From: an uncultured Eubacteriales bacterium
GTDB taxonomy: Bacteria > Bacillota > Clostridia > Oscillospirales > Acutalibacteraceae
Reading direction: 5' to 3'
Assembly: GCA_964433065.1 (NCBI GenBank)
Contig: CAYSPZ010000001.1
Location: 28,651 to 92,650 of the forward strand
DNA length: 64,000 bases
Part shown: piece by piece, positions 20,875-42,799 of the stretch
How the letters are laid out: every line of letters begins with the position of its first letter
Position numbering within the stretch: the stretch's first letter is position 1
Made by a program: the position numbers and the translations under genes
Notes under the pieces: model-generated
The model's input: the letters and a program-made list of their open reading frames with translations, nothing else
The model's database searches: none
Told to the model about the DNA's origin: nothing

Positions 20875-20875
20875 G

Positions 20876-21220
20876 ATGGAACGGAAACTGACCTGTATCG
20901 TATGCCCTTTGGGTTGTGAGTTGACCGTGCAGTTGGACGGGAAAACGGTCACGGCGGTGTCGGGCAACACCTGTGTGCGCGGCAAAACGTATGCCGAGAC
21001 CGAATGTACAAACCCGATGCGTACGGTGTGTTCCACCATGCGGTGTGACGACGGTTCGATGGTGGCGGTCAAGACCGATCGCACCATCCCGAAAGAGAAA
21101 ATGTTCGAGTGTATGCGCCGTATCAACGACGCGGTCGCGACCTTACCCGTTCAGGTGGGGGACGTTCTCCTCACCGACGTGTGCGGCAGTAACATTGTCG
21201 CAACACAAAACAGAGAATAA
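20876..21220 (+). CDS. DUF1667-type small Cys-rich protein
   Basis: MERKLTCIVCPLGCEL..GNTCVRGKTYAE is the DUF1667 pattern. The ATG at 20876 lies 1 nt after the upstream stop; the longer ORF extension was rejected. Confidence 0.7.
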   Translation: MERKLTCIVCPLGCELTVQLDGKTVTAVSGNTCVRGKTYAETECTNPMRTVCSTMRCDDGSMVAVKTDRTIPKEKMFECMRRINDAVATLPVQVGDVLLTDVCGSNIVATQNRE

Positions 21221-21223
21221 ACG

Positions 21224-21262
21224 AAACGATCCGCGAGGCAATCAACCTCGCGGATCGTTTTT
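21224..21262. terminator. Bidirectional Rho-independent terminator (copy 1 of a repeated module)
   Basis: AAACGATCCGCGAGG / CCTCGCGGATCGTTT 15-bp stem with a 7-nt loop, then TTTTT. It sits between convergent stops at 21220 (+) and 21266 (-). Confidence 0.75.
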
Positions 21263-21265
21263 ATA

Positions 21266-22267
21266 TTACAGATAACGCAACAGGTTTTCGGCATAGTAGC
21301 CAAAACCGTCGTCACTCGGGTGGACGGTGCCGTCGCCGTACAGATTGACGTCGTGCGGGACAAGGTCGATGCCGTTGATCAACTCAATATTGTCGAAGCC
21401 GTCAAGGCAGTGTTCGATGGCGGTGTGCAACTCTTCGAACCGACCGAACGGCAGTTCGCCGCCGCGGGGGAGCCAGATCGGGGAGATCACCACCACACGC
21501 GTAGTGGGATAGGTCGCGCGTAGGTTTTTAAAAAAGGCGCGGCAATATTCCTCAAACTGTTCGCGGGTGCGGTGGTGGTAGTCGTTGCACCCGTACGCAA
21601 CGGTGATGATATCGGGGATGAATGCCTCTTTCGTTGCGGCGAGTTCGGGGAAAAACATCTCGCCGCCGATGGCTTTATTAAACTCATCGGCATCCAGCGC
21701 ACGTGCCAGACGGCACAGATAGGAATTGGACGGGTAAAGCGAATGATACCCTTGGGTGATGGAATCACCGAACGCGAGTAACGTGTGTTTACGGCGAACA
21801 GGCGTGACCGACGCGCCGTCGTCCAGTTCGACAAATTCCACCGACGGTTGTACCGACCACGGGAAGTACACTTCCACCGTTTTTTCGCCATCGCCGAGCG
21901 AAAAGGTCTTTTCCATTCGGGTAAAAGATAACGGAATACCGGTGTACGGGACGGTCATTTCCACCCCGTCAAAGTTGCAAAGATGATCGACACATTCACC
22001 ATTTACGTACACATCAAACCCGTAAAAAAGTGCGGATGAGGCGGAAGTCACGCGGGTCGCCAAAGTGAGGCGGGTACTGTCGGTACGAAACGCGAGACGG
22101 ACACCCGCCGACGACAATGAACGCAGATACGCGTCGTTACCTCTGTTTGCGTACAGGTCGCGTTGTTCTTCGGTAAACCGCCAGAACAGGAAACGACCGG
22201 TATTGGTCTGCTCCACCTCGGCGGCACCGACGGTGATCGCTTTTACTTGTTCGAGTGTGAGTTTCAT
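21266..22267 (-). CDS. SGNH/GDSL hydrolase with an N-terminal beta-sandwich (CE2-like carbohydrate O-acetyl esterase)
   Basis: LLAFGDSITQGY (Ser block I) and a C-terminal D..VHP block. A roughly 160-aa N-terminal extra domain matches CE2-type esterases. Confidence 0.65.
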   Translation of the reverse strand: MKLTLEQVKAITVGAAEVEQTNTGRFLFWRFTEEQRDLYANRGNDAYLRSLSSAGVRLAFRTDSTRLTLATRVTSASSALFYGFDVYVNGECVDHLCNFDGVEMTVPYTGIPLSFTRMEKTFSLGDGEKTVEVYFPWSVQPSVEFVELDDGASVTPVRRKHTLLAFGDSITQGYHSLYPSNSYLCRLARALDADEFNKAIGGEMFFPELAATKEAFIPDIITVAYGCNDYHHRTREQFEEYCRAFFKNLRATYPTTRVVVISPIWLPRGGELPFGRFEELHTAIEHCLDGFDNIELINGIDLVPHDVNLYGDGTVHPSDDGFGYYAENLLRYL

Positions 22268-22300
22268 ATCGATTTCTCCTTAAAGCAATCCGAACCTACC

Positions 22301-23179
22301 TTAAATCTCGCCGATGCGTTTGAGTTCGGCGCGGACCGCTTCGAACGCGGTTTCGGACAGGTCGGACACGTAGTCGGGCGCGTAGTTGCCTTCGTAGCCT
22401 AAGATGTTCATCGCGGCGGTGAAGGACGGCCACAGGTCGTTTGCGACAAAGAAGTCACGGAATGCGACGATGTTGTTGAGCGCAACCGCCGCTTTGTCGT
22501 AGTCGCCGTCCGCCATTGCGCGGAATAAGGCGGCGGTGTTTTTCGGGGTACAGGCAAGCATACCGTCGAGGCATTTGTCCATTCCCCATTTGTACGCAAC
22601 GTCAAACACGTCAAGACCCGAATACACCATAATGAAATCGGTCGGTACGTCGGGATCCAGTTTGAGTTTGCGGAACAGTTGGGTATCGTTGGATTTGATA
22701 CCGACGAAGTTCGGGACCGTTTTGAGCAGTTCCTTGACCATATCGTAGGTGATCTTGGTCTGGGTGACCGACGGCAGGTCATAGAGCAGAATGTTATGTT
22801 TGGTCAGTGCCGCGACCCCTCTGAAGAAGTTGAGCACCTGATCTTTTGACAGGGTATGGTAGTACGGGGTGGTGAATACCAATCCGTCGATGGCGAGGTC
22901 TTCCAGCGCGTCGATGCGTTGTTTGACACGCGCGATCGAGTTGTCCATCGCGCCCACGAACACGGGAACGCGGCCCGCCGCGGCTTCGACCGCCGTTTCG
23001 GCGACGGCGCGGAACACGTCGTGGCGGATAAACGCTTGGATGCCCATACTGCCCATACTGAGCAGACCGACCGCACCTGCGTTGATCTGGTCTTCGATCT
23101 GTTTTTTATAACTTTCGGGTAAGAAATTTCCGTCCTTGTCAAGCGGCGTACCGAGCGCCGGTACAAATCCTGCGTTCAT
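22301..23179 (-). CDS. DapA/NanA-family class I (pyruvate-dependent) aldolase
   Basis: TTPYY tyrosine motif and a GIKSND Schiff-base lysine block. Start moved to MNAGFVPALGTP (23179). Confidence 0.75.
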   Translation of the reverse strand: MNAGFVPALGTPLDKDGNFLPESYKKQIEDQINAGAVGLLSMGSMGIQAFIRHDVFRAVAETAVEAAAGRVPVFVGAMDNSIARVKQRIDALEDLAIDGLVFTTPYYHTLSKDQVLNFFRGVAALTKHNILLYDLPSVTQTKITYDMVKELLKTVPNFVGIKSNDTQLFRKLKLDPDVPTDFIMVYSGLDVFDVAYKWGMDKCLDGMLACTPKNTAALFRAMADGDYDKAAVALNNIVAFRDFFVANDLWPSFTAAMNILGYEGNYAPDYVSDLSETAFEAVRAELKRIGEI

Positions 23180-23192
23180 ATCGTTACACTCC

Positions 23193-23867
23193 TTAAAAAT
23201 CCAAAATAGTCTTATCGCCGTAGGTGTTCTGCCAATCCTTGTCAAATCCGCTGACGGCGGCATCGGTCATCGGGTGGGCGATCACCGCTTTTAACACGTC
23301 GGCGGTCATCGTCACGCAATGGCAACCCGCCGCGGCGCATTTATGCACCTGTTCGGCATTTTTGAAACTGGCGGCGAGCACTTCGCAGTCTACACCGTAG
23401 TAGTCAAACTGTTCGACGATTTCGGCTACCACGCGGGTACCGTCGCCGACAATGTTGTCCAGACGGTTGACGTAGGGTGCGACGTAGTCAGCACCTGCCG
23501 TTGCCGCGATCAACGCCTGTGCGGGGGTGAAGATGGCGGTCATCAGCACACGGATACCGCGTTTTTTGAGTTCCATCGTGGCTTTGAGTCCTTCTTCGCC
23601 GATCGGGATCTTGACGCAGAACGGACCGCCTGCGCGTTCGTTCATCAGCACCGCTTCTTCCACCATCTTATCCGCCGTTTTCTGCACCGTTTGGGCGAAA
23701 AGCAGTTTGTCGGGACCGATGATGGCGCGGATGTCCGCCATCAGTTTCCAGAAATCGGTGTGCTCTTTTGCGACGATGGACGGGTTGGTGGTGACACCGA
23801 AAACGGGATAGAATTCGTTGCAATGTTTGATTGCCGAAAGATCGGCGGTGTCCAGAATGTATTTCAT
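23193..23867 (-). CDS. Fructose-6-phosphate aldolase / TalC-type small transaldolase-family protein
   Basis: MKYILDTADL..GVTTNPSI..CVKIP (Schiff-base Lys)..YVAPYVNR, about 224 aa as in FSA/TalC. Start moved to 23867. Confidence 0.75.
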   Translation of the reverse strand: MKYILDTADLSAIKHCNEFYPVFGVTTNPSIVAKEHTDFWKLMADIRAIIGPDKLLFAQTVQKTADKMVEEAVLMNERAGGPFCVKIPIGEEGLKATMELKKRGIRVLMTAIFTPAQALIAATAGADYVAPYVNRLDNIVGDGTRVVAEIVEQFDYYGVDCEVLAASFKNAEQVHKCAAAGCHCVTMTADVLKAVIAHPMTDAAVSGFDKDWQNTYGDKTILDF

Positions 23868-23880
23868 AGTAAGTTCCTCC

Positions 23881-24816
23881 TTAAAAGCGATTAAACCATT
23901 GACGGGGATCGATGACGCGCGGGTCGATATCCGCAAACGCGTCGTGTAACATCGTCAGTTGATCGTCGGTGAGGGTCTGCACTTGATCGATCAACGAACA
24001 ATTGCTCTTGACGTGGTCGGCGATCTGACAACCGAGTACCACCGACGCGACCCCGTCGACCGACAGGATATACGACAGTGCCAATACCGCAGGTGTCATA
24101 CCGAAAGTATCGCACAATTCACGGTATTTTTCAAGATAGGGACGGCAAAAATCCATTCGCGGATCCAATTCGTCGGGAGAAAGGAATACCAATCCCTGTA
24201 AAAACACGCTGCGAACGAAGATCGCCATACCCGCGTCGGCAATTGCCTGAACGCCGCCGCTTTCGATCTGCCGCCAATCAAACACGTTGAGCGGGATCTG
24301 TACCGCGTCGAATCCCGAACGCGCGACATCAAAATAGTCGTCTTCGGAGTAGACCGACAAACCGCTGTAACGGATCTTGCCGCTCGCTTTGAGTTCGGCA
24401 AACACGTCGCGTACCACGTCGGGGTTTTTCGCGTAGTCGGCATAGGTATGTACCATCAGCATATCGAGCGACGAAACACCGAGCGTTTGTAAGCATCCGT
24501 CGGTCTGGCGCAGAATGTCGGCGCGCAATGCCGCGTCGGAACTGTGGTCGAACGGACCGATCTTGGTGACGATGAACGGACGCTCGTTTTCGGGTAAGGT
24601 TTGAAGCCATTCCCCGATGATCGCTTCCGAATCGCCGTAGTTGTTGGCGGTGTCCAGATTATCCACACCGCCGTCTTTGGCGCAGTCGAGCAGATAAAAC
24701 GCGTCCGCTTTCGTGGGTTTTACCGCGTGTTCGCCCAGTCCGTATGCCATACCGAGTTGCACCGTACCGAGCGAAAACACCGACATCTTTTCGCCGTGAA
24801 ACGAGGCATATTTCAA
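23881..24816 (-). CDS. Aldo/keto reductase
   Basis: LGTVQLGMAYG..LDTANNYGDSEAIIGEWL and the overall 311-aa AKR layout. Confidence 0.75.
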   Translation of the reverse strand: MKYASFHGEKMSVFSLGTVQLGMAYGLGEHAVKPTKADAFYLLDCAKDGGVDNLDTANNYGDSEAIIGEWLQTLPENERPFIVTKIGPFDHSSDAALRADILRQTDGCLQTLGVSSLDMLMVHTYADYAKNPDVVRDVFAELKASGKIRYSGLSVYSEDDYFDVARSGFDAVQIPLNVFDWRQIESGGVQAIADAGMAIFVRSVFLQGLVFLSPDELDPRMDFCRPYLEKYRELCDTFGMTPAVLALSYILSVDGVASVVLGCQIADHVKSNCSLIDQVQTLTDDQLTMLHDAFADIDPRVIDPRQWFNRF

Positions 24817-24829
24817 GCGTATTCCCCCT

Positions 24830-25627
24830 TTACCAGATGGTCCAGCCGCCGTCCATCACCAGCGTTGCGCCCGTCACGTAGGCGGAGGCTTCCGAGGCGA
24901 GAAACACGACGGGACCTTTGATATCGTCTTCGTTTGCCCAGCGGTGAAGCGGACAGTTATCGATGTAGTTTTTGACGAAATCTTTGCGGTCGGGGTCGTC
25001 CGACAGACCGGGGTTGAACCCGCCGGGTGCCAAACAGTTGACCCGCACGTTGTCTTTGCCGTAAAATCCCGCCATATATTTGGTCAGACCGATGAGCGCC
25101 CATTTTTCGGTGGTGTAGTTGACCGGTTGTTCGCTCATCGCGGGGGGATATAACGGGAAATGGGGGCAGTCCAGACCGCGCATCGAACCGACGTTGATCA
25201 CGCTGCCGCCGCCTTGTTTGACCATATACGGTACCACCGCTTGTGCCAGTAACAGTTGACCGTTCAGGTTGACCGAAGCGGAATCTTCCAGTTTTTCGCG
25301 GGTCGCTTTTTCGAACGACACCATATTGGTGCGGTCGACGGCATTGTTGACCAGTATATCGATCTTGCCGAACCGCTCGGCGACCGCGTCGGCGAGGGCG
25401 CGAATGGACGCGTCGTCCGAAAGGTCGAGCGAGTAACCGTACGCTTGGTGACCGTCCTTGCGTAATTCGGCGGCAAATTCTTCGCATTTGGCGCCGTTAC
25501 GGGACGCGATCACCACCGTCGCACCCGCTTCACACAAGCCTTTGGAAATGGACGCACCGTACAGACCTCTGCCACCCGTGACGATGGCGATCTTGCCGGT
25601 CAGGTCAAATAGTTCTTTGGTTGTCAT
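24830..25627 (-). CDS. Short-chain dehydrogenase/reductase (classical SDR)
   Basis: IAIVTGGRGLYG, LVNNA, and a C-terminus typical of gluconate-5-dehydrogenase-like SDRs. Confidence 0.8.
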   Translation of the reverse strand: MTTKELFDLTGKIAIVTGGRGLYGASISKGLCEAGATVVIASRNGAKCEEFAAELRKDGHQAYGYSLDLSDDASIRALADAVAERFGKIDILVNNAVDRTNMVSFEKATREKLEDSASVNLNGQLLLAQAVVPYMVKQGGGSVINVGSMRGLDCPHFPLYPPAMSEQPVNYTTEKWALIGLTKYMAGFYGKDNVRVNCLAPGGFNPGLSDDPDRKDFVKNYIDNCPLHRWANEDDIKGPVVFLASEASAYVTGATLVMDGGWTIW

Positions 25628-25638
25628 AATCGTTCACC

Positions 25639-26571
25639 TCAAGAGAAAGAGTATACGGCTTTGCCGGTAGCGGCGTCGTATTCTTCCATGCGGAAGGTGA
25701 GCGACGCGTGTTCGGCAAACACCTGCATCATCACCGTAGTGGTGTAGGAAAACCATTCGGATACCGTTCTGCCGGTGGCGGTGAGATGGGAAACGGCGGG
25801 GCAATATGCCACGGTGAACACCGTTTTGCCGTCCGTTTGTTGGATGGTGAGGACCTCTTCGCATTTTTCAAGGCGGTAGGTCTGTTTCACCTTGTCGCAG
25901 ATGGCATCGATCCCGCGTTCACGGATATCGGTGAGCGTTTTCGCATACACCCGTTCGGTGAAGGTGCGCAGATAATCGCACAACACATCGGTGCCGAAGT
26001 GTTCGCCCAGATACTGAACGGCATTGTTGGTACTGCTGTGAAAATCACGGTGGAAATACTCGTTATCCGACGCGTTGCGGTGCATCTGCAACGTATGGTC
26101 ATCAACGATGAGTTTGTTACGGAACCGTTTGGGGTCGTACACCAGAATGGAACAGGACGCGTTATCGGTACCGCAGAAGTCGTAGATATATTTGAGTCCC
26201 GCTTTTTCGACCGATTCACGGTAGTGGTCACAGTGCAGACAATAGTCGTGGTACGGGGTGATACCGAGGGTATCTTGCAGTTCCAGCAACCGTCCTTTTG
26301 ACGGGCAACGGTGCATCCGGATCTTAAACCAGCCGTCTTGTTCGTTTAAGTACATGGAGAAATCCGCCGCTTCTTCGTTGAGCGAACCGCTCCAATACGA
26401 ATAGCAACCCTTGATGCCTTCCTCGTTCAGGAAATTGATCAGCGGAATACCCGCGCCGTCGGGTTTAAACAGAAATTCCCAGAAACGGTCAACCTCCCCC
26501 CTACCGTAACGGTCTTCCAGGAAGGTGAACAATTCACTGTACGCGGGGATAAATTCGGTACACGAGATCAT
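25639..26571 (-). CDS. Hypothetical protein with an internal tandem duplication of a Cys-Pro-containing domain
   Basis: Clean 310-aa ORF packed in the operon (gaps of 11 and 9 nt). Both halves show the same pattern: helical segment, beta strand, CP, and a C-terminal YD(x)3-6G. No family recognised. Confidence 0.55.
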   Translation of the reverse strand: MISCTEFIPAYSELFTFLEDRYGRGEVDRFWEFLFKPDGAGIPLINFLNEEGIKGCYSYWSGSLNEEAADFSMYLNEQDGWFKIRMHRCPSKGRLLELQDTLGITPYHDYCLHCDHYRESVEKAGLKYIYDFCGTDNASCSILVYDPKRFRNKLIVDDHTLQMHRNASDNEYFHRDFHSSTNNAVQYLGEHFGTDVLCDYLRTFTERVYAKTLTDIRERGIDAICDKVKQTYRLEKCEEVLTIQQTDGKTVFTVAYCPAVSHLTATGRTVSEWFSYTTTVMMQVFAEHASLTFRMEEYDAATGKAVYSFS

Positions 26572-26580
26572 ACGGTCACC

Positions 26581-27552
26581 TCAATACTGGAAGAAATCGT
26601 CGTCGACGATGGTGGAGGCGAGGTTCTCGCTCATATACACGTTGGTGGGATTTTCACGCAACTGTAAGATGGAAGCGGGAACGTCCTGCGAGGGTTTGCC
26701 GAAAATGCTCAGCCGCGAGGACAGACGTTGCCACGTGACGTGGGTCCCTGCGGTGGTAATAGCGTGCATATCCAGCACTTCTTTCGCTTTCATCGCGTCG
26801 CGCGGACCCATCATCGCGCCTTTCGGGGGCACTTTGGAGATGTCACCCGAGCAACCGAAACAACCGTGCAGGGAGTTTTGCGCGATGGTGAGCGGGTGCA
26901 GTGACGCGACCTTCGCGCCCTGTTCGAGGTATTCTTCCATCGTGGGTTTGAACCAGTCGTCCACAGGGTCGATAAAGGCGAGGTGGGCGGGCCAACCGGG
27001 ACCCGAATACACGATATCCGCTTCGCCGTCCGCTTCCAGCATTTTGGAGAAGTCGGGGGTCACCTTGTTGCTGTGGTAGATGAAATTTTCTTCTTTAAAG
27101 CCGAGATCCAGAATGTTGGACACCATAAACCGATAAAACGCGTTGCCGAATCCCGCTTTGTACGAAAGCGGCGCGACGTTGCCCTGATCGTCTGCCCACT
27201 CGTCCATCATATAGAATTTGACGTTACGGCAGTTGACACCGAGTTTGCGCAACATATATGCCACCTTACGGTAGGTGGGACAGGGGTTGCACATAATCAT
27301 CACGCATTTTTTGTCGTAGCGGTCGGAGTCCAGAATACGCTGTACCATATCGGTGAGCATGATCATTTCAAACTCTTCGTTTTTGACCACCTGTACGCTC
27401 ATCGACGGGCTGGTAGGATGTTTGCCGTCGAGGGCGACGATGTCTTCTTTGGTGATGGCGCGAACACGCGCGATCTCGTCAAGATCCTTGAACGGATAAA
27501 AATCCGCCGGTTTGAAGGTAAAGTTGTCGTTCCCGTAAATCATTGCGTTCAC
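26581..27552 (-). CDS. NagB/6-phosphogluconolactonase-fold protein (glucosamine-6-P deaminase/isomerase-like)
   Basis: VMIMCNPCPTYRKVAYML..VKFYMMDEW parallels the GxTP..LDEY blocks of the NagB/Pgl family. It is 323 aa, longer than canonical NagB. Confidence 0.5.
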   Translation of the reverse strand: MNAMIYGNDNFTFKPADFYPFKDLDEIARVRAITKEDIVALDGKHPTSPSMSVQVVKNEEFEMIMLTDMVQRILDSDRYDKKCVMIMCNPCPTYRKVAYMLRKLGVNCRNVKFYMMDEWADDQGNVAPLSYKAGFGNAFYRFMVSNILDLGFKEENFIYHSNKVTPDFSKMLEADGEADIVYSGPGWPAHLAFIDPVDDWFKPTMEEYLEQGAKVASLHPLTIAQNSLHGCFGCSGDISKVPPKGAMMGPRDAMKAKEVLDMHAITTAGTHVTWQRLSSRLSIFGKPSQDVPASILQLRENPTNVYMSENLASTIVDDDFFQY

Positions 27553-27555
27553 TCC

Positions 27556-28890
27556 TTATTTCACACGTTCGATGGTGTCGAACACGTTTTCAACCAGATG
27601 TTTGCCGAACCGTTCGCCGAGCATAGAGGTGTCGGTTTCGTAACCGCCGGTTACCAGCGATTCGGGGGTGTAGAGGTAGCCGGGCAGACAACCGTTGGAG
27701 AGTTCGTTGACCACCACCATACCGAATCCCGCCATGGCTTTGATGTACAGTGCGTATTCCACGAACAGTTCGCCCTGAAGACCGACCATCAACAGGTCGC
27801 CCAGACGGAACACCTGAATTTCGGCGGGGGCTTCGTCTTCCAGCAGTTCCACTTTGATGCCCTGTTTGCGCATACGGACGTAACCGAGTTGGTCTTCCGA
27901 CCCGAGCAGTTTCAGGTTGGCATTTTGCCACAGATAATATTCTTCGCGCTTATCGGAGTTGCCGTATCGCGCGTAAAGGTCTTTGTAGATCGCCTCGTCG
28001 TGTTCCACCTGCGCGATGAGGTCTTCTTCGGTCCCGAAATCGCGCAGTTCCAGTTCGACGGTGCTTTGCGCCACGCGAATGGGTAACGTATCGGTCCACA
28101 CGGCGCGTTGTAAAACGGTATTTGCCGCTTTACCGAGCGTTCTGCCGACCCGTTCCGCTTCGTCGTAACTCTCACCCTGACGGTAGTACCGACTGGATTG
28201 GTTACCCGATGCGCCTTGCGCAAACCCGACGAGTGCAGAGGGGTATTGCTCTTCCAATTCCCTTTTCAGGTAGCACGGGTAATCGGCGGTACACACGTTA
28301 CTCCATTCGTGGATGAAGGTGGGGTGCAACGTGTAGTTGACCAGAATACCGCGTATCGTGTCGGCGGTATCCTTGACCGCCATCACGCTGACCAGCGGGT
28401 CGTGAGGGCCGCCGGGGATGCGGCGGTTTCCGCCGATGCCCGACTCCGCGCCGCACAAAGCGGTACCGCAGGTAAACTGCGCGTCGAACGCTTCTGCTTT
28501 CGCTTTGCCGATGAGGTCAACGACCGTGTCGATCACCGACCGCACGTATTCGTGAGGTTGTTCTTTTTTGGCTTCCAGACTTTCGATATCCAACCGTCCC
28601 GAAGCCCACGGACCCGAATGGGTGTGGGAACAACTGATCATCACGTTTTGCGGTAACAGACCGTACCGCTCTGCAACCGCCGATCGCACGGCGGCAACGT
28701 GTTTTTTGGAGAAAAATAACAGGTCAAGGGTGACCATCGCGACGGCCGTTTCGCCGTCACAGAGATACAGACACGCCGCATACAGCGGATCGTGTGCGCC
28801 CGTATTGTTACGGGGATAGTGCGGGTAACCCGCGAGTTCCAGTCCGAGCGGCGGTGTGATGTCCGCTCTCGTCATACCTGCTTTTAACAT
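27556..28890 (-). CDS. Neutral/alkaline ceramidase-like amidohydrolase (N-terminal ceramidase domain family)
   Basis: ADITPPLGLELAGY and CSHTHSGP motifs match the neutral ceramidase N-terminal domain family. No signal peptide. Confidence 0.6.
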   Translation of the reverse strand: MLKAGMTRADITPPLGLELAGYPHYPRNNTGAHDPLYAACLYLCDGETAVAMVTLDLLFFSKKHVAAVRSAVAERYGLLPQNVMISCSHTHSGPWASGRLDIESLEAKKEQPHEYVRSVIDTVVDLIGKAKAEAFDAQFTCGTALCGAESGIGGNRRIPGGPHDPLVSVMAVKDTADTIRGILVNYTLHPTFIHEWSNVCTADYPCYLKRELEEQYPSALVGFAQGASGNQSSRYYRQGESYDEAERVGRTLGKAANTVLQRAVWTDTLPIRVAQSTVELELRDFGTEEDLIAQVEHDEAIYKDLYARYGNSDKREEYYLWQNANLKLLGSEDQLGYVRMRKQGIKVELLEDEAPAEIQVFRLGDLLMVGLQGELFVEYALYIKAMAGFGMVVVNELSNGCLPGYLYTPESLVTGGYETDTSMLGERFGKHLVENVFDTIERVK

Positions 28891-28892
28891 TG

Positions 28893-30032
28893 TTATCTCA
28901 CCATTTTCCCGTTAAGAAATACATTTTTAATATCAAAATTGTCGTCCAAAACGACTAAATCGGCACGTTTGCCGACCGCGATACTCCCGATCTCGCCGTC
29001 CAGTTTGAGAGCGCGGGCGGGATTGCGGGATGCCATTAAAAAGACGTCGTTTACGGTGGCACCCGTGTGCTTTCGCATATTGCGACAGGCGACGTTTAAG
29101 GTCAGCGTACTGCCGCACAGGTCACCGTTGTCATCAAAATTGAGGTCGGTGATATGCGCGAAGGCGGGCGGCGAAGGGTTATCACTCACAAAACTGTCGG
29201 AAATGAGGATCACCTTGTCCACCCCTTTGATCTTGACGATCAGTTGCAGCATATCGGGGTGTACGTGGATGCCCTGCGAATCGCAGATGACTTCCGCGTA
29301 CATATCGTCGTCGAGGAAACACGCTTCGTCGGGACCGCAACTGCGGGTACCCGCCGCCGTGGGGATGCGACCCGTCGCATCGGTACAATGGGTAAGTACC
29401 GACAACCCGTACGGTTTAAGCGCCGCGATCTGTTCGGGGGTCGCTTCACTGTGCGCGACCGAGAACACCGCGTGGGGGGTAAGTGTATGTACCGCTTTGA
29501 CAAATTCGGGTACCCCGTCCCGTTCGGGCGCGACCGCCCACAGTTTGGTCAGTTCACCCGCGTGGCGCACGATCGGTTCGTAGTCTTCACGGCGGATCAT
29601 ACCGCGCCAGCGGTTCTTTTCGGGACAGGCACCGTATTTTTCGTTGGTGTACGGGCCTTCCATATACAGTCCGCCGAGGTTCGGGCTGGTCGGCATTGCC
29701 GCTTTGACGCGGTCGATCGCCTCGATGTATCCGTCGGCGTCAATGTCGGTATACAAGGTCGCGAGTACGGTGGTGGTACCGCTATCCAAAAAATGCGTGG
29801 CGGCACCGACGGGATCGCGGTCGAACCGACAACCGCCGCCACCGTGGCAATGAATGTCCACGAAACCGGGACCGACGATATGTCCGTCGGCATCGTATAT
29901 CTGTGCGTCCGACGGTATGGTGATCGCGTCGGTGTCACCGTACGCGACGATTCGACCGTCGTCGATCAATACCGCACCGTCATCGATGCGGTCGTATTCT
30001 AAAATGAGTTGTGCGTGGATAATGGCAATCAT
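28893..30032 (-). CDS. N-acetylglucosamine-6-phosphate deacetylase-like amidohydrolase (NagA/AgaA family)
   Basis: PGFVDIHCHGGGG, then later ..SVAHSEA.. and a C-terminal GSIAVGKRADLVVLD, as in NagA. Start moved to MIAIIHAQ (30032). Confidence 0.8.
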   Translation of the reverse strand: MIAIIHAQLILEYDRIDDGAVLIDDGRIVAYGDTDAITIPSDAQIYDADGHIVGPGFVDIHCHGGGGCRFDRDPVGAATHFLDSGTTTVLATLYTDIDADGYIEAIDRVKAAMPTSPNLGGLYMEGPYTNEKYGACPEKNRWRGMIRREDYEPIVRHAGELTKLWAVAPERDGVPEFVKAVHTLTPHAVFSVAHSEATPEQIAALKPYGLSVLTHCTDATGRIPTAAGTRSCGPDEACFLDDDMYAEVICDSQGIHVHPDMLQLIVKIKGVDKVILISDSFVSDNPSPPAFAHITDLNFDDNGDLCGSTLTLNVACRNMRKHTGATVNDVFLMASRNPARALKLDGEIGSIAVGKRADLVVLDDNFDIKNVFLNGKMVR

Positions 30033-30036
30033 CGGC

Positions 30037-31446
30037 TCACCTCGTTTGTAAGGCTTGTTTGACGGCGCAGAAACGCGCATATCCGTCATCGGTATGTTGC
30101 GGTTTGAACACCCGCGTGACGGTGAGCGGCGAAAGCGGTACACCGACCGCTTTGGCGGCAAGTCTTGCGGCACCCGCGCCTGCGGCTTCACACGTTTGGG
30201 GTGTGTGAATGGTAAGACCGGTCACGTCCGCCAGGATCGACGGCCACAGGTCGCCTTTGGCACCGCCGCCAAACAGGATCACGGTATGGACGTTGCCGTA
30301 CGCGTTCATCCGTTCGAGCAGTGAACGGATCTCACAGGCGACCCCTTTCATCACCGCGAGTGCCATTTCACCGCGGTCGGTGGCGAGGGTGATGCCGTGG
30401 AAGGTACCGCCGTTCTCACCCGCAAGATACGGGAAGAACAACAACGATGAACCGCGCGCGGCGGCTGCCGCCGCCTCGTCGTCGATCACGCGGTAGTCGG
30501 TGTCGGTAAACAGGGTATCCCGCGCCCAGCGCAGACAGGTACCCGCCGTCGACACCACCCCTTCGGATACGAAGGTATCGGGGTCGACGTATCCGCAGAA
30601 ACTCATTCCCTGTCCGTACAGGTCGGGCTGATAGGTATCCCACCGTTTGGTCACGGCGGCGGCAGTGCCGAGCGAAACGGTCATGACACCGTCCCGTAAC
30701 CCTACACCGTACGCGGCGCATTTCTGGTCTTGTGCGCCCACCGCCACCACGCAATCGGCGCGAAGACCGAGTGTTTTGGCAACCGACGGCAACACGTATC
30801 CGACCGCCTCCCCCGAACGGGCGAGGGTCGGTAAGGTGTCAACGTTAATACCGTAGCGGGATAACAGGTCGTGATGCCAACAGGCATTTTTGACGTCGTA
30901 CATCAGCGTACCCGATGCCATACTGTGGTCGGTGACAAACCGACCGGTAAATTTCGCAATGAGATAGTCCATCGGCATTACGAATTTATACGCTTGTTCG
31001 TAGATCGACCGACGGTGTTGCCTGAGCCATAACAGTTTGGGAAGGGTGTATGCCGCGGTGATGGGTTTGCCGGTCGTTTGCCCGATCCACTCGTCACCGA
31101 AATCGGCGCGGATCTGCGCGGCTTCACGCTCGGCGCGGGTATCCAGCCAGGTCATCGCCGCGCACAAGGGATTTGCGTCACGGTCGACGGGGACAACGGT
31201 GATGCCCTGCGAACTGATCGAGATACTGTCGATCCGTTCGCCGCAACCGCCCGCCTTGCCGATCGCGTTTTTCGCGGTGCGCAAGGTGAGTTCCCACCAC
31301 GATTCGGCATTCTGTTCCACCCATTTTTCCTGCGGTGTGGACAGGGGATATTCCTCGTAGTCGGTCGATACGGTATTCAGTTGTTGGTCAAACAGGATAC
31401 TGCGGCAACCGGTCGTGCCGAGATCGATGGCAAGATAGAGCGACAA
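30037..31446 (-). CDS. FGGY-family carbohydrate kinase
   Basis: LAIDLGTTGCRSILFD N-terminus and a C-terminal FGGGAKGDLW block, typical of xylulokinase/FGGY kinases. Confidence 0.8.
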   Translation of the reverse strand: MSLYLAIDLGTTGCRSILFDQQLNTVSTDYEEYPLSTPQEKWVEQNAESWWELTLRTAKNAIGKAGGCGERIDSISISSQGITVVPVDRDANPLCAAMTWLDTRAEREAAQIRADFGDEWIGQTTGKPITAAYTLPKLLWLRQHRRSIYEQAYKFVMPMDYLIAKFTGRFVTDHSMASGTLMYDVKNACWHHDLLSRYGINVDTLPTLARSGEAVGYVLPSVAKTLGLRADCVVAVGAQDQKCAAYGVGLRDGVMTVSLGTAAAVTKRWDTYQPDLYGQGMSFCGYVDPDTFVSEGVVSTAGTCLRWARDTLFTDTDYRVIDDEAAAAAARGSSLLFFPYLAGENGGTFHGITLATDRGEMALAVMKGVACEIRSLLERMNAYGNVHTVILFGGGAKGDLWPSILADVTGLTIHTPQTCEAAGAGAARLAAKAVGVPLSPLTVTRVFKPQHTDDGYARFCAVKQALQTR

Positions 31447-31460
31447 CCTCTTCCCCTCCG

Positions 31461-32081
31461 TCAGCGTTTGAGTTGCAGATCGTAGTGAACGTCGTAGGCT
31501 TTTTCTTCGTCGGTAAACTTGTGCAGCGTGTTGATCACTTCACCGTTGTTCCATTTACGGTCTTCCACCGCGTCGGTGGTACCCATAACGGTGACGTTGA
31601 GTTGGCGGCGACGGGCGCGGACGTGGTCCCAGTCGATGAAATAGACGTGGGCGAATTCGCCGCCGTCCAGTACACCGTCTTTGATGGTCATCGTTTCGCT
31701 TCTGCCGAAGAACACACTGCGCAGGTGACCGTCGGTGTTCATACTGGTGAAGTCGCCGGGTTCGTTCACGTAGCGACCGAATTGCGCGTGGATCGGGCCG
31801 GGATGACGGTAGTCGCCCTCGTTCGTGTAATCGGGAATCATTTTACGCATAATGTCCAGCAGATCGTGTTGCAGGTATTCGAGGTCAAACGAGTCGATGT
31901 CGTGCGAACATTCCTGAATCATCACCGAGCAGGTGGTGTGATGGGACGCGATGCAGACGGTACCGTTTTGAATACCCGACGCTTTGACGATCTCGATCAC
32001 CTCTTTGGACACGTCGTGGAAGGTGGGGATCCACCCGCGGGATTGCAGTTCGAGTTCTTTTTGAAATACTTTGAATTCCAT
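31461..32081 (-). CDS. YjbQ/UPF0047-family protein with a roughly 60-aa C-terminal extension
   Basis: The core (..GTVCIASHHTTCSVMIQE..) is the UPF0047 signature. At 206 aa it is longer than the usual roughly 140 aa. Confidence 0.65.
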   Translation of the reverse strand: MEFKVFQKELELQSRGWIPTFHDVSKEVIEIVKASGIQNGTVCIASHHTTCSVMIQECSHDIDSFDLEYLQHDLLDIMRKMIPDYTNEGDYRHPGPIHAQFGRYVNEPGDFTSMNTDGHLRSVFFGRSETMTIKDGVLDGGEFAHVYFIDWDHVRARRRQLNVTVMGTTDAVEDRKWNNGEVINTLHKFTDEEKAYDVHYDLQLKR

Positions 32082-32114
32082 AGTCGTTATCTCCTTTAAA
32101 AATAATGGTTGATA

Positions 32115-32816
32115 TTATTGATGACGCTCGTCCCACGCGCGGCGGACGGCGGCGATCATCTCGTCCACCATCGCGGCGCGGTCTTCGGCTTTGGCGATAC
32201 CCGACGACGAACCGGTCGCGTCGGCACCTGCGACGATGGTGTTATACACGTCGTCGCCGTTCGCGATCCCCGCCGCGGTCAACACCAGAATATCGGGGTC
32301 GACGTCCTTGACCGAACGGGTGGCGGCTTCGACGTATTCTTTGCCGACACTGACACCCGTGCCGATCAGTTCGGACGGTTCGGCAACGATGATATCGGGA
32401 TGAAGCGCGGCGATCTCACTCGCCTGCGCGGAGGAGTCTGCGCACACGATGGTGGTCAGTCCCACCTCGTCGGCACGGGCGATGGTTTCGCGCAACACCT
32501 CAAAGGTCAACGGTTTTTCACAATGGTTGAGCATCACGCCGTCGGCACCCGCCGCGACCAGCGATTCGGGTAACACGTCCGCCAACCCTCTGCCGGGATA
32601 GAGCGGGTCCATATGCGGCGCAAATACGTGAATGTGTTCGGTCGCTTCTCGGACACGGCGGATATCCACGATCGGGGTGGTGAAGAGAATATCCACTCCG
32701 TATTTTTCGGATGCGCGGTCTGCCGCTTTTGCCAATTCCAAAACGTCGTCGCCGTACAGATACGATTTGGGACCGATCTCGAAAAACGGCAATCGAACGG
32801 GTCTTGTTTTGTTCAC
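32115..32816 (-). CDS. Triose-phosphate-isomerase-family isomerase (short, archaeal-like type)
   Basis: MLNHCE (the NHSE His block), AEPSELIGTG (catalytic Glu block) and GSSSG (phosphate loop). GTG start at 32816, 7 nt after AAAGGAAG. Confidence 0.7.
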   Translation of the reverse strand: MNKTRPVRLPFFEIGPKSYLYGDDVLELAKAADRASEKYGVDILFTTPIVDIRRVREATEHIHVFAPHMDPLYPGRGLADVLPESLVAAGADGVMLNHCEKPLTFEVLRETIARADEVGLTTIVCADSSAQASEIAALHPDIIVAEPSELIGTGVSVGKEYVEAATRSVKDVDPDILVLTAAGIANGDDVYNTIVAGADATGSSSGIAKAEDRAAMVDEMIAAVRRAWDERHQ

Positions 32817-32853
32817 TTTTTTTCTTCCTTTCTGCCACATTTCTACAGTTAAC

Positions 32854-32882
32854 ATTATATTTTAAACACGCGTATTTTTCAA
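32854..32882 (-). promoter_or_regulatory. Candidate promoter of the 12-gene catabolic operon
   Basis: On the minus strand: TTGAAA, 17 nt, TATAAT, about 38 nt upstream of the GTG start. Confidence 0.55.
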
Positions 32883-32955
32883 TCGCATTTTCCAAAACGA
32901 AAAAAATTCGTAAACATAACCGAAGACTACGGCTAAATCTTGTCATTTTTGTGTA

Positions 32956-32984
32956 TTGAAAAAGAAAAAAGAAAGGTTTATACT
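32956..32984 (+). promoter_or_regulatory. Candidate divergent promoter of the SIS-DeoR pair
   Basis: TTGAAA, 17 nt, TATACT, 37 nt upstream of the ATG at 33021. Confidence 0.5.
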
Positions 32985-32986
32985 GT

Positions 32987-33007
32987 AAAACGAAAGAAAA
33001 ACGAAAA
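32987..33007 (+). promoter_or_regulatory. Tandem AAAACGAAA direct repeat (operator-like) just downstream of the -10
   Basis: AAAACGAAAG AAAAACGAAAA with an 11-bp period, overlapping the predicted transcription start. A third copy lies at 32894-32905 near the opposing promoter. Confidence 0.3.
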
Positions 33008-33020
33008 TAAGGTGACAGGT

Positions 33021-33620
33021 ATGATCCAACAAAACTCTCTGGACGCCGCCAAAGCGGCATACGACATTGAAGCGGCATGTATCACGCAGATGAAAGACTA
33101 TTTTGACGACGAAGCGTTTTCGAAAGCGGTGGAACTGCTGTGTAACGCGCGGTGTATCGGCGCGGCGGGGTGCGGACATTCGGGTATCCTGTGTCAGCAT
33201 TTCGCGCATCTGATGTGTTGCGTGGAGCGTCCCGCCAAATTCATCTCCCCTGCCGAGGCGGTACACGGCGGTACGGGGTTTTTACAGGCGGGGGACGTGA
33301 TGGTGTTTGCTTCCCGCGGCGGCAGTACCAAGGAGTTGTTCCCGATCGCCGATATCTGCAAGGCGAAAGGGGTTCACGTCATCACCATTACCGAGAACCT
33401 CTCTTCCCCGCTCGCAGAGGCGGCAGACGTGGTGATCAAACAATTCGTCAACCGTGAGACCGATAAGTACAATATGCAGGGAACGACCAGTTCGACGGCA
33501 CTTTGTATGTTGTTCCACGCGTTACAGACGGCGGTGATCGAGGAGACCGATTACCAAAAAGAACAGTTTGCGCTGATTCATCCGGGCGGTGCGGTCGGCG
33601 AACGTTTGAATAAACGATAA
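33021..33620 (+). CDS. Single-SIS-domain sugar-phosphate isomerase (KpsF/GutQ/PHI-like)
   Basis: CIGAAGCGHSGILCQHFAHLM..VMVFASRGGSTKE..VITITEN is the SIS phosphosugar-binding pattern. Start moved to MIQQNS. Confidence 0.7.
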   Translation: MIQQNSLDAAKAAYDIEAACITQMKDYFDDEAFSKAVELLCNARCIGAAGCGHSGILCQHFAHLMCCVERPAKFISPAEAVHGGTGFLQAGDVMVFASRGGSTKELFPIADICKAKGVHVITITENLSSPLAEAADVVIKQFVNRETDKYNMQGTTSSTALCMLFHALQTAVIEETDYQKEQFALIHPGGAVGERLNKR

Positions 33621-33631
33621 AGAGGGATAGT

Positions 33632-34402
33632 ATGTCAACCAGTCGGGAAAAGATCGACGGTCGCCGTCGGGCGATCGTGGAAGAATTACACCGTGAAGGA
33701 AAAGTATACGTCAACGAACTGAGTCGGTCGTTCGCGGTAACGGCGGTCACCATCCGTCACGATCTGGACGTCCTCGAACAAGAGGGAAAACTGGTGCGGA
33801 TGAACGGCGGCGCGGTCTGCGTGGGCGGCGAACACATCGAACCGCTCGACGGCAGGATCAAAAACGTCGCCGAAAAAGAAACGGTGGCGCGGACGGTGGC
33901 GCGGATGGTCAAAAACGGCAGTACCGTGTTCCTCAATTCGGGTACCACCACCTTGTGTATCGCGCAAGCGTTGAAGTCGGCGCGGCATTTGAATATCGTC
34001 ACCAATTCGCTGGACATAGCGACGGTGCTCGGTAACGTACCCACCTTTCGCGTGATCCTGCTCGGCGGCGAGATCAACAGCAACTATCGGTTCACCTACG
34101 GCAGCGACGCGCAGGAACAACTCGCGCGGTACCAGTCGGATTGGGCGATCTTGTCGATGGACGGTGTGGCACAGGAAAACGGTATCACCACCTACCACGC
34201 GGAGGAGGCGATCCTCGACCGTATGATGATGGATCGCGCGGTCAAAACGGTGATCGCCGCCGACCATACCAAGATCGGGAAAACGGGATTTACCAAGGTG
34301 TGCGATTGTTCGCCGAAGATCACGTTGGTGACCGACCCGAACGCGGATACGACCGCTCTCGCAACACTCACCGAAAACGGTGTGACCGTGATCTGCGAAT
34401 AA
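33632..34402 (+). CDS. DeoR/GlpR-family transcriptional regulator
   Basis: N-terminal HTH (RRRAIVEELHREGKVYVNELSRSFAVTAVTIRHDL) plus a DeoR C-terminal sensor domain (VFLNSGTTT..ILSMDG). Confidence 0.85.
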   Translation: MSTSREKIDGRRRAIVEELHREGKVYVNELSRSFAVTAVTIRHDLDVLEQEGKLVRMNGGAVCVGGEHIEPLDGRIKNVAEKETVARTVARMVKNGSTVFLNSGTTTLCIAQALKSARHLNIVTNSLDIATVLGNVPTFRVILLGGEINSNYRFTYGSDAQEQLARYQSDWAILSMDGVAQENGITTYHAEEAILDRMMMDRAVKTVIAADHTKIGKTGFTKVCDCSPKITLVTDPNADTTALATLTENGVTVICE

Positions 34403-34423
34403 ACAATGGCTTTTTACAAACGA

Positions 34424-34457
34424 AACGATCCGCGAGGTAAACACCTCGCGGATCGTT
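34424..34457. terminator. Stem-loop terminator (copy 2 of the repeated module)
   Basis: AACGATCCGCGAGG / CCTCGCGGATCGTT 14-bp stem with a 6-nt loop. On the minus strand it is followed by TTTCGTTT; on the plus strand only GTTGTT follows. Confidence 0.55.
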
Positions 34458-34464
34458 GTTGGTT

Positions 34465-34743
34465 ATAGCCGAAGAGAGCCGAACTCCTTATCGCCCATAG
34501 GGCGACTTTTCGGCAAAAATCTTGTTTTATCGCTTGAAATACGGGCGTATGTCGGCGCGACTCAACTTCGTTTTTGCACGAAAAGTCGCGCCTATGGGTT
34601 GTGTGCAAGTCAAAATAAACAATTTTGGTTTGCAACAAGGCATACAAGCGACGAAATACTATATGCATTGGGAGCGAAGTATAACGCAGTTGCAGAGCAA
34701 AATTGTTATTTTGACCGATGAGGGTTCGGCTCTCTTCGGCTAT
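34465..34743. repeat. 279-bp structured element closed by a perfect 20-bp inverted repeat (MITE-like element or structured RNA)
   Basis: ATAGCCGAAGAGAGCCGAAC (34465-34484) is the exact reverse complement of 34724-34743. Inside, 34494-34519 pairs with 34571-34598 (about 26 bp) and 34611-34627 pairs with 34698-34713. Confidence 0.6.
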
Positions 34744-42045: not shown

Positions 42046-42053
42046 ATCACCCT

Positions 42054-42788: not shown

Positions 42789-42799
42789 TCTATGTCACC

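Follow-up and report, generated by a model that had tools for sequence, protein, structure and literature searches.

Organization of the operon

Within a 64,000-nucleotide stretch from an uncultured Eubacteriales bacterium of the Acutalibacteraceae (assembly GCA_964433065.1, contig CAYSPZ010000001.1, positions 28,651 to 92,650; hereafter the window, whose own numbering is used throughout), we analyzed a 12-gene operon of predicted sugar-processing enzymes together with two divergent genes, which encode a SIS-domain sugar-phosphate isomerase and a DeoR-family repressor (Table 1). According to the open reading frame (ORF) calls, the 12 genes all lie on the minus strand and run head to tail over 21266-32816 once start codons have been corrected, with intergenic gaps of 33, 14, 4, 2, 12, 9, 11, 13, 13, 13 and 33 nt. 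Starts were corrected from Shine-Dalgarno sequences and by comparison with orthologous genes of L085 (assembly GCA_054289445.1), a syntenic relative in which the gene 7 product, here called UNK, is 90% identical to that of the window. A Shine-Dalgarno-like sequence precedes each corrected start in the operon. An earlier note on this DNA, made from the sequence alone, had described 12 co-directional genes with 2-33-nt gaps, and the ORFs, their order and their strand were as it claimed after these small adjustments.

The near-consensus promoter named in that note was recovered as the best site of its region, where promoter-like sites in total do not exceed chance (8 found versus 8.6 expected from shuffled sequences). 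The ATG at 32855 falls inside the -10 box, and the start of gene 1 was therefore placed at the GTG at 32816, which is preceded by a AAAGGAAG ribosome-binding site and yields a protein of the same length as in L085. Corrected starts were also assigned to the NagB-like (27543), FSA (23867), DHDPS (23179) and SIS (33021) genes, and that of the NagA-like gene was taken from the 379-residue ortholog in L085. Tight gaps, one strong promoter and one strong terminator define the gene set as a single operon, as had been proposed, and L085 has all 12 genes in the same order. The SIS and DeoR genes do diverge from it and possess a promoter of their own. Three AAACGAAA boxes, located in an A-rich region, constitute a candidate DeoR operator; L085 also has three (3557-3668) with identical 93- and 11-nt spacing, a conservation that counts for little because L085 is a close relative.

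Hairpins with the stem AACGATCCGCGAGG and its complement, at 21224-21260 and 34424-34457, bracket the 13.2-kb locus. The 14-nt stem of the first recurs in the second and nowhere else in the 64 kb. Mobile-element ends were considered and rejected, because the two copies agree in their stems alone, have different flanks and lack extended repeats. We treat the hairpins as shared terminators; they may instead be a REP (repetitive extragenic palindromic)-like element that marks a transferred cassette.

Table 1. Genes and transcription signals of the operon and its divergent gene pair (window positions; aa, amino acids)
Feature	Position	Strand	Length	Remarks
Gene 1, archaeal-type TIM-family isomerase	32115..32816	-	233 aa	NCBIfam PRK04302 185.7 bits (cut-off 132)
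Gene 2, YjbQ/UPF0047 protein	31461..32081	-	206 aa	Pfam PF01894 85.2 bits
Gene 3, FGGY sugar kinase, xylulokinase-like	30037..31446	-	469 aa	FGGY_N + FGGY_C
Gene 4, NagA-like amidohydrolase	28893..30032	-	379 aa	Full-length Amidohydro_1
Gene 5, neutral-ceramidase-like Zn amidase	27556..28890	-	444 aa	Catalytic domain only; Pfam Ceramidase_alk 43.5 bits (cut-off 32.1)
Gene 6, NagB-fold isomerase/deaminase-like	26581..27543	-	320 aa	No Pfam match; Foldseek, glucosamine-6-phosphate deaminases
Gene 7, UNK	25639..26571	-	310 aa	Tandem H-NOX/V4R/ATC-hydrolase-like; invariant Cys/His
Gene 8, short-chain dehydrogenase/reductase (SDR)	24830..25627	-	265 aa	adh_short + adh_short_C2
Gene 9, aldo-keto reductase (AKR)	23881..24816	-	311 aa	Pfam Aldo_ket_red 121 bits
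Gene 10, FSA/TalC-type class I aldolase	23193..23867	-	224 aa	TAL_FSA 168.6 bits
Gene 11, DHDPS-family class I pyruvate lyase	22301..23179	-	292 aa	Pfam DHDPS 120 bits
Gene 12, SGNH/GDSL esterase with extra N-terminal domain	21266..22267	-	333 aa	Lipase_GDSL_2 at residues 165-321, 59.9 bits
SIS-domain sugar-phosphate isomerase	33021..33620	+	199 aa	Pfam SIS; GutQ/KpsF-like, no CBS domains; same length in L085
DeoR-family repressor, AgaR-like	33632..34402	+	256 aa	HTH_DeoR + DeoRC; AgaR 191.3 bits (cut-off 260)
Operon promoter, TTGAAA-17 nt-TATAAT	32854..32882	-		Sigma-70, 11/12 positions; best site in 20800-34600; 38 nt upstream of gene 1 GTG
Divergent promoter for SIS and DeoR, TTGAAA-17-TATACT	32956..32984	+		10/12 positions; 37 nt upstream of SIS start
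Three AAACGAAA boxes, candidate DeoR operator	32895..33006	+		Boxes at 32895, 32988 and 32999
Operon terminator hairpin	21224..21260	-		16-bp stem and T-rich tail, directly after last gene
Bidirectional hairpin terminator after DeoR gene	34424..34457	.		15-bp stem, detected on both strands

Enzyme families encoded by the operon

Families were assigned by Pfam and NCBIfam profile searches of the 14 proteins (12 operon genes, SIS and DeoR), none of which reaches a curated NCBIfam equivalog cut-off. The family assignments of the earlier note were essentially all borne out by Pfam, NCBIfam or structure matches, with the small start-codon corrections given above. For gene 12, annotated there as a CE2-like SGNH esterase, the SGNH/GDSL assignment holds and the CE2 likeness comes down to weak matches (AxeC2, E 8e-4; SsfX3_N, E 1.5e-3), the latter being all that the N-terminal part matches. 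The FGGY kinase reaches 335 bits on the XylB model (cut-off 380), and its best solved relative is the E. coli xylulokinase 2itm (187 bits). The NagA-like protein scores 180.5 bits on TIGR00221 nagA (cut-off 225.65) and 136 bits on NF008371 (cut-off 483). The best NCBIfam model for the SDR is the gluconate 5-dehydrogenase subfamily at 204.6 bits, below its cut-off of 279, and no specific NCBIfam model scores above cut-off for the AKR. The SIS protein affords 111 bits on GutQ (cut-off 481) and 106.7 bits on the KpsF/GutQ family (cut-off 203.7).

The operon encodes two class I aldolases. On three fructose-6-phosphate aldolase models gene 10 falls just short, with 225.5, 223.3 and 207.8 bits against cut-offs of 306, 245.95 and 214. 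The signature residues of E. coli FSA are Gln59, Lys85 and Tyr131; compared by eye with these residues, gene 10 carries LFAQT, CVKIP and APYVNRLD, and its Gln/Lys/Tyr set is, as judged from sequence, that of an aldolase and not of a transaldolase. The DHDPS-family protein scores 105.5 bits on dapA (cut-off 206), and 69.1 and 52.3 bits on the nanA models NF003164 (cut-off 281) and TIGR00683 (cut-off 382). By eye, it keeps the Schiff-base Lys (VGIKS) and the Tyr (LYDLPS), lacks the Arg138 of DapA, and has GSMGI in place of the GTTGE of DapA or the GSTGE of NanA. The missing arginine and the altered motif indicate that it is neither DapA nor a canonical NanA, and the scores agree.

The two amidases and the NagB-like protein retain catalytic residues in alignments. 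On the NCBIfam nagB models the NagB-like protein gives weak scores of 22-26 bits against cut-offs of 237-326. Its AlphaFold2 model, of modest predicted local distance difference test score (pLDDT 65.7), retrieved first glucosamine-6-phosphate deaminases (E 2.7e-9) and then 6-phosphogluconolactonases in Foldseek. In an hhalign profile alignment with E. coli NagB, MDEW aligns with MDEY and GHLAF with GHIAF, so that Asp72 and His143 are kept, and IDP aligns with NEP, which places Asp at Glu148 and Pro at Asp141. The protein is extremely constrained, its top 120 homologs being 79-95% identical.

Gene 5 shows the catalytic-domain signature of neutral ceramidases (P. aeruginosa 2zws; human ASAH2), and in an alignment with 2zws its Zn-site and catalytic residues fall in register, namely the HTHSGP motif, a second His (LHPT), a Glu (GEL) and two Tyr (GYLY and GYETD). 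These residues make it probably an active Zn amidase. Unlike the neutral ceramidases, it is about 200 residues shorter (444 versus 646 aa) with no C-terminal ceramidase domain, is cytoplasmic, occurs in sugar operons and is paired with a UNK-type domain, to which one homolog (P0401) is fused. Ceramide is an unlikely substrate.

The TIM-like protein of gene 1 matches the P. woesei triosephosphate isomerase 1hg3 at E 3.5e-43 and scores 84 bits on the TIGR00419 equivalog, below its cut-off of 130.6. Its Lys, His (NHCE) and Glu (AEPSELIGTG) align with catalytic residues of 1hg3. The catalytic Asn of INFK is replaced by Gly (EIGPK; PFFE[IV]GPK in orthologs), a substitution found in 15 of 16 orthologs, the sixteenth having Thr, which suggests a substrate other than, or besides, triose phosphate. 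Its usual partner is the YjbQ gene; the two are adjacent in nine loci.

The UNK protein

No usable match for UNK was obtained in Pfam, NCBIfam or PDB sequence searches, and its 1299 homologs are all unnamed; weak PTP1B matches (E above 0.1) were dismissed as noise. Eleven positions are invariant (C4, C56, H87, C89, C111, H113, C114, C140, H174, H178 and C257), and the motifs MHRCPSKGRLL, DYCLHCD, YFHRDFHSS and YCPAV are conserved. The AlphaFold2 model (pLDDT 85.6) comprises two similar helix/sheet halves, each of which weakly matches H-NOX, TRAPP Bet3 and the Zn-containing V4R sensor domains of PoxR and MopR in Foldseek (E about 1e-2, TM-score 0.4-0.56 to the target, one half at a time). A library-wide profile search collected 545 clusters, mostly single-domain proteins about 155 aa long, each the equivalent of one half.

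The weak matches would place each UNK half in the fold class of V4R, H-NOX and the L-ATC (2-amino-thiazoline-4-carboxylate) hydrolase AtcB (ATC_hydrolase, PF14196). UNK differs from the hydrolase in that its PF14196 matches are below threshold (8 of 22 UNK members, best E 0.0056) and in being a tandem duplication with its own invariant Cys/His set. In the ATC pathway a ring-opening hydrolase is followed by an amidohydrolase, an order that parallels the coupling of UNK with the ceramidase-like amidase. The two are joined in P0401, a natural 600-aa fusion of an N-terminal ceramidase-like domain (HTHSGP intact, Ceramidase_alk 37.9 bits) to a C-terminal UNK-type domain; P0378 and P0382 are similar fusions to the C-terminal half of UNK, with degenerate amidase parts. 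The P0401 fusion, together with the adjacency of UNK to a distant ceramidase-like paralog (Cer2), ties UNK to the amidase step.

UNK genes vary in their arrangement. At L046 (11077-12023), UNK is split into two half-size genes in reversed order, and several other loci (L009, L069, L027, L040 and L041) carry two or three tandem full-length paralogs.

Distribution and gene neighborhoods

At least 510 species-representative genomes carry UNK. Among these, the 80 best matches are almost all metagenome-assembled genomes of gut Clostridia (Oscillospiraceae, Faecousia, Acutalibacteraceae, Lachnospiraceae and Christensenellaceae), sampled from goats, sheep, deer, horses, cattle, chickens and humans. 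We compared 82 non-redundant UNK loci with 10-kb flanks, whose genes were called with a codon-usage-scored ORF caller validated on L085; recurrent neighbor clusters were annotated and several smaller clusters were left unannotated. The DHDPS-family gene is the commonest neighbor (45 loci), followed by the NagA-like gene (35), FGGY and SDR (31 each), the NagB-like gene (26), the ceramidase-like gene (25, plus 7 with Cer2), AKR and DUF386 (22 each), the TIM-like gene (16), DeoR (14), YjbQ (12) and SIS (10).

These neighbors fall into three recurring modules. The first (module A) is DHDPS-(DUF386)-UNK-SDR-AKR, with DHDPS adjacent to UNK in 19 loci, SDR to UNK in 17, SDR to AKR in 18 and DHDPS to DUF386 in 14. 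The second (module B) joins FGGY-NagA, adjacent in 22 loci, to the ceramidase-like and NagB-like pair, adjacent in 19, and the third (module C) consists of TIM-YjbQ with SIS and sometimes FSA. By these neighborhoods the operon is a mosaic of the three modules and not a single fixed pathway of 12 steps. Between the window and loci L001-L084, across Clostridia families, identity amounts to 92% (median) for YjbQ, 82% for the TIM-like, 81% for the NagB-like and 78% for the SIS protein, and only to 56-59% for the kinase, the NagA-like protein and UNK. The high cross-family identity suggests that these genes are strongly constrained, that module C and the NagB-like gene have spread horizontally, or both.

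Related loci also carry genes that the window lacks. Their DUF386 proteins belong to the YhcH/YjgK/YiaL family and score 94 bits on the NanQ model; NanQ, of the DUF386 family, is an N-acetylneuraminic acid (Neu5Ac) anomerase that serves NanA (PMC8141875, PMC10017367). Their BNR_2 propellers have three or four Asp boxes, are distantly GH33-like and score 44 bits on a B. thetaiotaomicron sialidase. Further recurrent neighbors are a GH29 fucosidase, a GH20 hexosaminidase, a GFO/IDH/MocA oxidoreductase and Amidohydro_2 proteins. ABC transporters with four kinds of binding protein are found (SBP_bac_5, PotD-like, CUT1 and CUT2), and SBP_bac_5 and SBP_bac_1 are the binding-protein families of the sialic acid ABC transporters SatABCD, SAT2 and SAT3 (PMC8461474). 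The most prevalent locus variant (98 collection blocks) holds DUF386, BNR, glycoside hydrolase and transporter genes in one island. No NanE or AGE epimerase was seen among the annotated recurrent neighbor clusters, several smaller clusters being unannotated.

Four of the related loci (L033, L042, L058 and L060, at about 8600-9970 in each) encode a 440-aa protein without a Pfam match immediately upstream of UNK. This protein of the CUT2-type loci is a distant full-length relative of SftI and L-arabinose isomerase, at 104 bits against a cut-off of 700.

Comparison with known pathways

To our knowledge, only two routes of sialic acid catabolism are textbook knowledge, NanA/K/E and the NanE-II/RokA route of Bacteroides. 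The canonical sequence is NanA-NanK-NanE-NagA-NagB, with the Bacteroides variant proceeding via NanE-II and RokA; in canonical nan systems NanK is a ROK kinase, and the NanS esterase and NanQ anomerase are accessory (PMC10017367). The operon shares several enzyme types with nan systems: its lyase is a class I member of the DHDPS family, its deacetylase is of the NagA type and its deaminase-like enzyme is of NagB fold, and an esterase and a sugar kinase are likewise common to both. In related loci this core lies beside DUF386, BNR propellers and SBP_bac_5 or SBP_bac_1 ABC transporters. In contrast to nan systems, the lyase, NagA-like and NagB-like proteins all score below curated thresholds, the sole kinase is of the FGGY family with no ROK domain encoded in 21266-34402, and Pfam finds no NanE or AGE epimerase family among the 14 proteins. 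Conserved genes beyond the nan set encode the ceramidase-like amidase, UNK, SDR, AKR, the TIM-like protein, YjbQ, SIS and FSA. Neither a sialic acid transporter nor a sialidase is encoded in the window, whereas related loci have ABC systems and BNR_2 proteins. Domain searches of 21266-34402 agree with the earlier note that this region encodes no transporter, phosphotransferase system (PTS) or glycoside hydrolase domain.

Likeness to N-acetylgalactosamine (aga) catabolism extends to the AgaR-like DeoR repressor, the NagA/AgaA-type deacetylase and the SIS-domain protein. The operon differs from aga systems in that its SIS protein is single-domain and GutQ/KpsF-like, not a double-SIS AgaS, and its AgaR score is below cut-off; no PTS component, PfkB/tagatose-6-phosphate kinase or tagatose-bisphosphate aldolase is encoded in 21266-34402. 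With NanK, NanE/AGE, AgaS and tagatose enzymes all absent and no equivalog score, the gene set matches neither the sialic acid nor the N-acetylgalactosamine pathway, as the note had stated, and we found no set of characterized orthologs of more than 50% identity that together form a known pathway.

The sulfo-TAL pathway of Firmicutes employs the isomerase SftI and the FSA/TalC-type enzyme SftT. The operon resembles it in placing an FSA/TalC-family enzyme in a peripheral sugar pathway, and its CUT2-type relatives have an SftI-like isomerase. It differs in that sulfo-sugar genes are absent, no SftI-like gene lies in the window and the FSA signature reads as that of an aldolase.

A proposed catabolic route

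We read the operon as a non-canonical route because its logic is nan-like but the kinase is FGGY and not ROK, an epimerase is missing and six additional genes are conserved. Our preferred assignment, held tentatively and at somewhat less than even confidence, is that the operon, a single transcript repressed by DeoR, serves a catabolic route that needs neither NanK nor NanE and acts on a sialic-acid-type sugar (by which we mean an N-acylated 2-keto-3-deoxy nonulosonic acid) or its N-acyl-hexosamine product.

A sequence of steps can be drawn up from enzyme families, conserved residues and gene neighborhood. The SGNH esterase would strip O-acyl groups, and the DHDPS-type class I lyase would then cleave off pyruvate. 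The xylulokinase-like FGGY kinase would phosphorylate the resulting N-acyl-amino sugar, or a ketose derived from it, after which the NagA-like enzyme and the ceramidase-like Zn amidase, the latter acting with UNK, would take off N-acyl groups. The presence of two amidases need not mean two N-acyl groups, which is only one of several readings. The NagB-like enzyme would isomerize and deaminate the amino-sugar phosphate to a keto-sugar phosphate, whose conversion to glycolytic or pentose-phosphate intermediates would fall to the SIS protein, the FSA-type aldolase and the TIM-like protein, the last with YjbQ. The scheme in the earlier note had given no role to SDR, AKR, YjbQ, UNK or SIS. Here SDR and AKR most likely would catalyze a redox isomerization (aldose to polyol to ketose) or an epimerization in place of NanE, such that the SDR/AKR pair and UNK with the ceramidase-like amidase may replace or extend the NanK and NanE steps. 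The inducer that acts on DeoR is probably a phosphorylated intermediate. Uptake and glycoside cleavage would be encoded elsewhere in the genome; in relatives, ABC transporters, BNR proteins, and GH20 or GH29 enzymes are adjacent.

Several observations weigh against this assignment. The DHDPS protein scores far under the NanA cut-offs, and two motifs of that enzyme, GSTGE and DE, are missing from it. No homolog of the DUF386, BNR, ABC-transporter or Amidohydro_2 proteins of related loci lies in the 64-kb window, so the link to sialic acid is borrowed from homologous loci. Even there, a clear sialidase FRIP motif was not found in the BNR proteins, which we accordingly call sialidase-like in fold only. 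About six CUT2-type loci, four of which encode an SftI-like isomerase, have the FGGY-NagA-Cer-UNK set with no DHDPS lyase within their 10-kb flanks, which indicates that the amino-sugar module can work without the lyase. A simple bypass by deacetylation and deamination of N-acetylmannosamine 6-phosphate would need neither the ceramidase-like amidase nor UNK, SDR, AKR, YjbQ or the TIM-like protein. Finally, full-text literature searches on nonulosonic acid, non-canonical sialic acid and 3-deoxy-D-manno-octulosonic acid (Kdo) catabolism, on FGGY or DUF386 in connection with sialic acid and on ceramidase homologs within amino-sugar clusters yielded no description of the cluster.

With less confidence again, we propose that the operon might represent a third, undescribed route for sialic or nonulosonic acids, widespread among uncultured Clostridia of the gut (at least 510 species genomes), in which NanK and NanE would be replaced by a metal-binding UNK with the ceramidase-like amidase, SDR/AKR, the divergent NagB-like enzyme and the Asn-to-Gly TIM-like protein. 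In that case several of its enzyme families would be new, and possibly the substrate class as well; examples are N-glycolylneuraminic acid (Neu5Gc), sialic acids in O-acetylated or de-N-acetylated form, and nonulosonic acids of bacteria. The cluster is not categorically new, since its parts come mostly from well-known families of catabolic enzymes; at least three of its protein families nonetheless have no assigned function, namely that of UNK and those of the divergent NagB-like protein and the short ceramidase-like amidase.

In the gut, sialic acids and the sugars related to them are a key currency that bears on colonization, cross-feeding and pathogen blooms, and hundreds of uncultured species of Oscillospiraceae, Lachnospiraceae and Christensenellaceae, from humans and livestock, conserve the gene set. 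Solving the pathway would allow thousands of gut proteins now called 'hypothetical' to be assigned a function, would make for better metabolic models of uncultured but abundant Clostridia and might reveal new sugar chemistry that handles amides or imines. Should it prove an ordinary hexosamine pathway whose enzymes are redundant, only annotation would gain.

Alternative readings

The earlier note had suggested legionaminic acid, pseudaminic acid or bacillosamine-type sugars as substrates. Its general idea of a nonulosonic acid or N-acyl-amino-sugar route is supported by the DUF386, BNR, GH20, GH29, GFO/IDH/MocA and SBP_bac_5 or SBP_bac_1 proteins of related loci; its specific substrates are not, as nothing particular to them was found and the fucosidase and hexosaminidase neighbors point instead to host glycans. 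At a low level of confidence, and without favoring it, we consider a version that starts from a di-N-acylated 9-deoxy nonulosonic acid of bacteria (legionaminic or pseudaminic acid) or from a bacillosamine-type sugar, with one amidase for each N-acyl group. The C6 deoxy product would be converted by AKR to a primary alcohol for the FGGY kinase, and the FSA-type aldolase would cleave a ketose that is not phosphorylatable at C6. SDR and AKR would thereby gain roles, the two different amidases, co-conserved with intact active sites, would be explained, and the distance of the DHDPS and BNR proteins from canonical NanA and GH33 would be expected. The FSA-type aldolase, with the SftI-like isomerase of related loci, recalls sulfo-TAL, the sulfoquinovose transaldolase pathway, whose 6-substituted sugar is likewise not open to phosphorylation at C6. 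However, many loci have one amidase only, the NagB-like protein keeps the residues of a phospho-sugar deaminase, no feature specific to either acid was found, and GH29 and GH20 point to host glycans.

Similarly unlikely, in our estimation, is a lyase module for a non-amino 2-keto-3-deoxy sugar acid, such as Kdo or 3-deoxy-D-lyxo-heptulosaric acid (Dha) from plant rhamnogalacturonan II or lipopolysaccharide, 2-keto-3-deoxynononic acid (KDN), or 2-keto-3-deoxygluconate (KDG) from uronates. The lyase would release pyruvate and an aldose such as D-arabinose, AKR would reduce the aldose to a polyol, SDR would oxidize this to a ketose and the FGGY kinase would phosphorylate it, with SIS interconverting arabinose 5-phosphate and ribulose 5-phosphate; the NagA-like, ceramidase-like and NagB-like proteins would make up a separate, co-regulated hexosamine module. 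The SDR-AKR adjacency fits such an oxidoreductive aldose-to-ketose route, the best SIS matches are arabinose-5-phosphate isomerases and the kinase is closest to xylulokinase, yet FGGY adjoins NagA (22 loci) and not SDR or AKR. Two loci without amino-sugar genes (L086 and L047) combine SDR-AKR-DHDPS-UNK and a beta-helix (Pel9A-like) protein of 1226 aa, and in L089 an HpcH/HpaI aldolase adjoins DHDPS; against such a separation, UNK bridges both modules and is fused to the amidase. A plant substrate would suit the many herbivore hosts and the GH43, GH127 and weak BNR_2 genes of the window, but DUF386, GH20 and GH29 fit host sialoglycans at least as well, and no Kdo-specific enzyme was identified.

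The operon could also encode no single pathway. It would then be a co-transcribed mosaic under one repressor, in which horizontal transfer has joined three modules with different substrates (lyase-UNK-SDR-AKR, kinase-NagA-Cer-NagB-like and TIM-YjbQ-SIS-FSA). The modules do occur separately and in many orders, the very high cross-family identities of YjbQ, the TIM-like and the NagB-like protein suggest mobile cassettes, and identical hairpins bracket the locus. We nonetheless consider this explanation improbable, given the tight gaps, the single promoter and terminator and the recurrence of the complete gene order in L085; the co-occurrence of UNK with every module argues for shared chemistry.

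A glycerol route could be drawn as well, in which the lyase yields glyceraldehyde, AKR converts it to glycerol, the FGGY kinase forms glycerol 3-phosphate and the adjacent glpA-like operon continues; gene proximity is the one point in its favor, and FGGY-NagA adjacency speaks against it. Synthesis of an amino-sugar-derived metabolite or a cell-surface nonulosonic acid, conceivable in that DHDPS-type and FSA-type aldolases are reversible and UNK has no assigned function, is very improbable and was rejected, since no nucleotidyltransferase, aminotransferase, acetyltransferase, glycosyltransferase or phosphoenolpyruvate-dependent synthase is among the locus proteins, whereas the DeoR repressor, the deacylases, the deaminase-like enzyme and the transporters and glycosidases of relatives are catabolic hallmarks.

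Neighboring genes in the window

Beyond the DeoR gene, a seven-gene operon on the minus strand (38106-44328) encodes two Zn-dependent alcohol dehydrogenases, a GFO/IDH/MocA protein, two SDRs, a type I dehydroquinase-like protein and one protein without a Pfam match; membership of the same regulon is possible, as is a cyclitol-type pathway. In L085, the last genes of this oxidoreductase operon (1-2124) directly adjoin the DeoR gene. In the window, two genes for BspA-type LRR_5 proteins, one with cohesin and dockerin domains, lie between them (34740-37687, minus strand), and their absence from this position in L085 implies an insertion in the window or a deletion in L085.

On the other side, three plus-strand genes (18206-21220) converge with the 3' end of the operon. 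They encode DAO with a BFD-like [2Fe-2S] domain, Pyr_redox_2 and DUF1667 proteins, and the set looks like an anaerobic glycerol-3-phosphate dehydrogenase, which could accept glycerol 3-phosphate from the operon's pathway, an idea for which nearness is the one argument. Plant-glycan genes are present as well, at 16670-18109, 46548-48371 and 49053-50459; they encode a GH43 protein with CBM6, a GH127 protein (beta-L-arabinofuranosidase family) and a 468-aa protein with a sub-threshold BNR_2 match.

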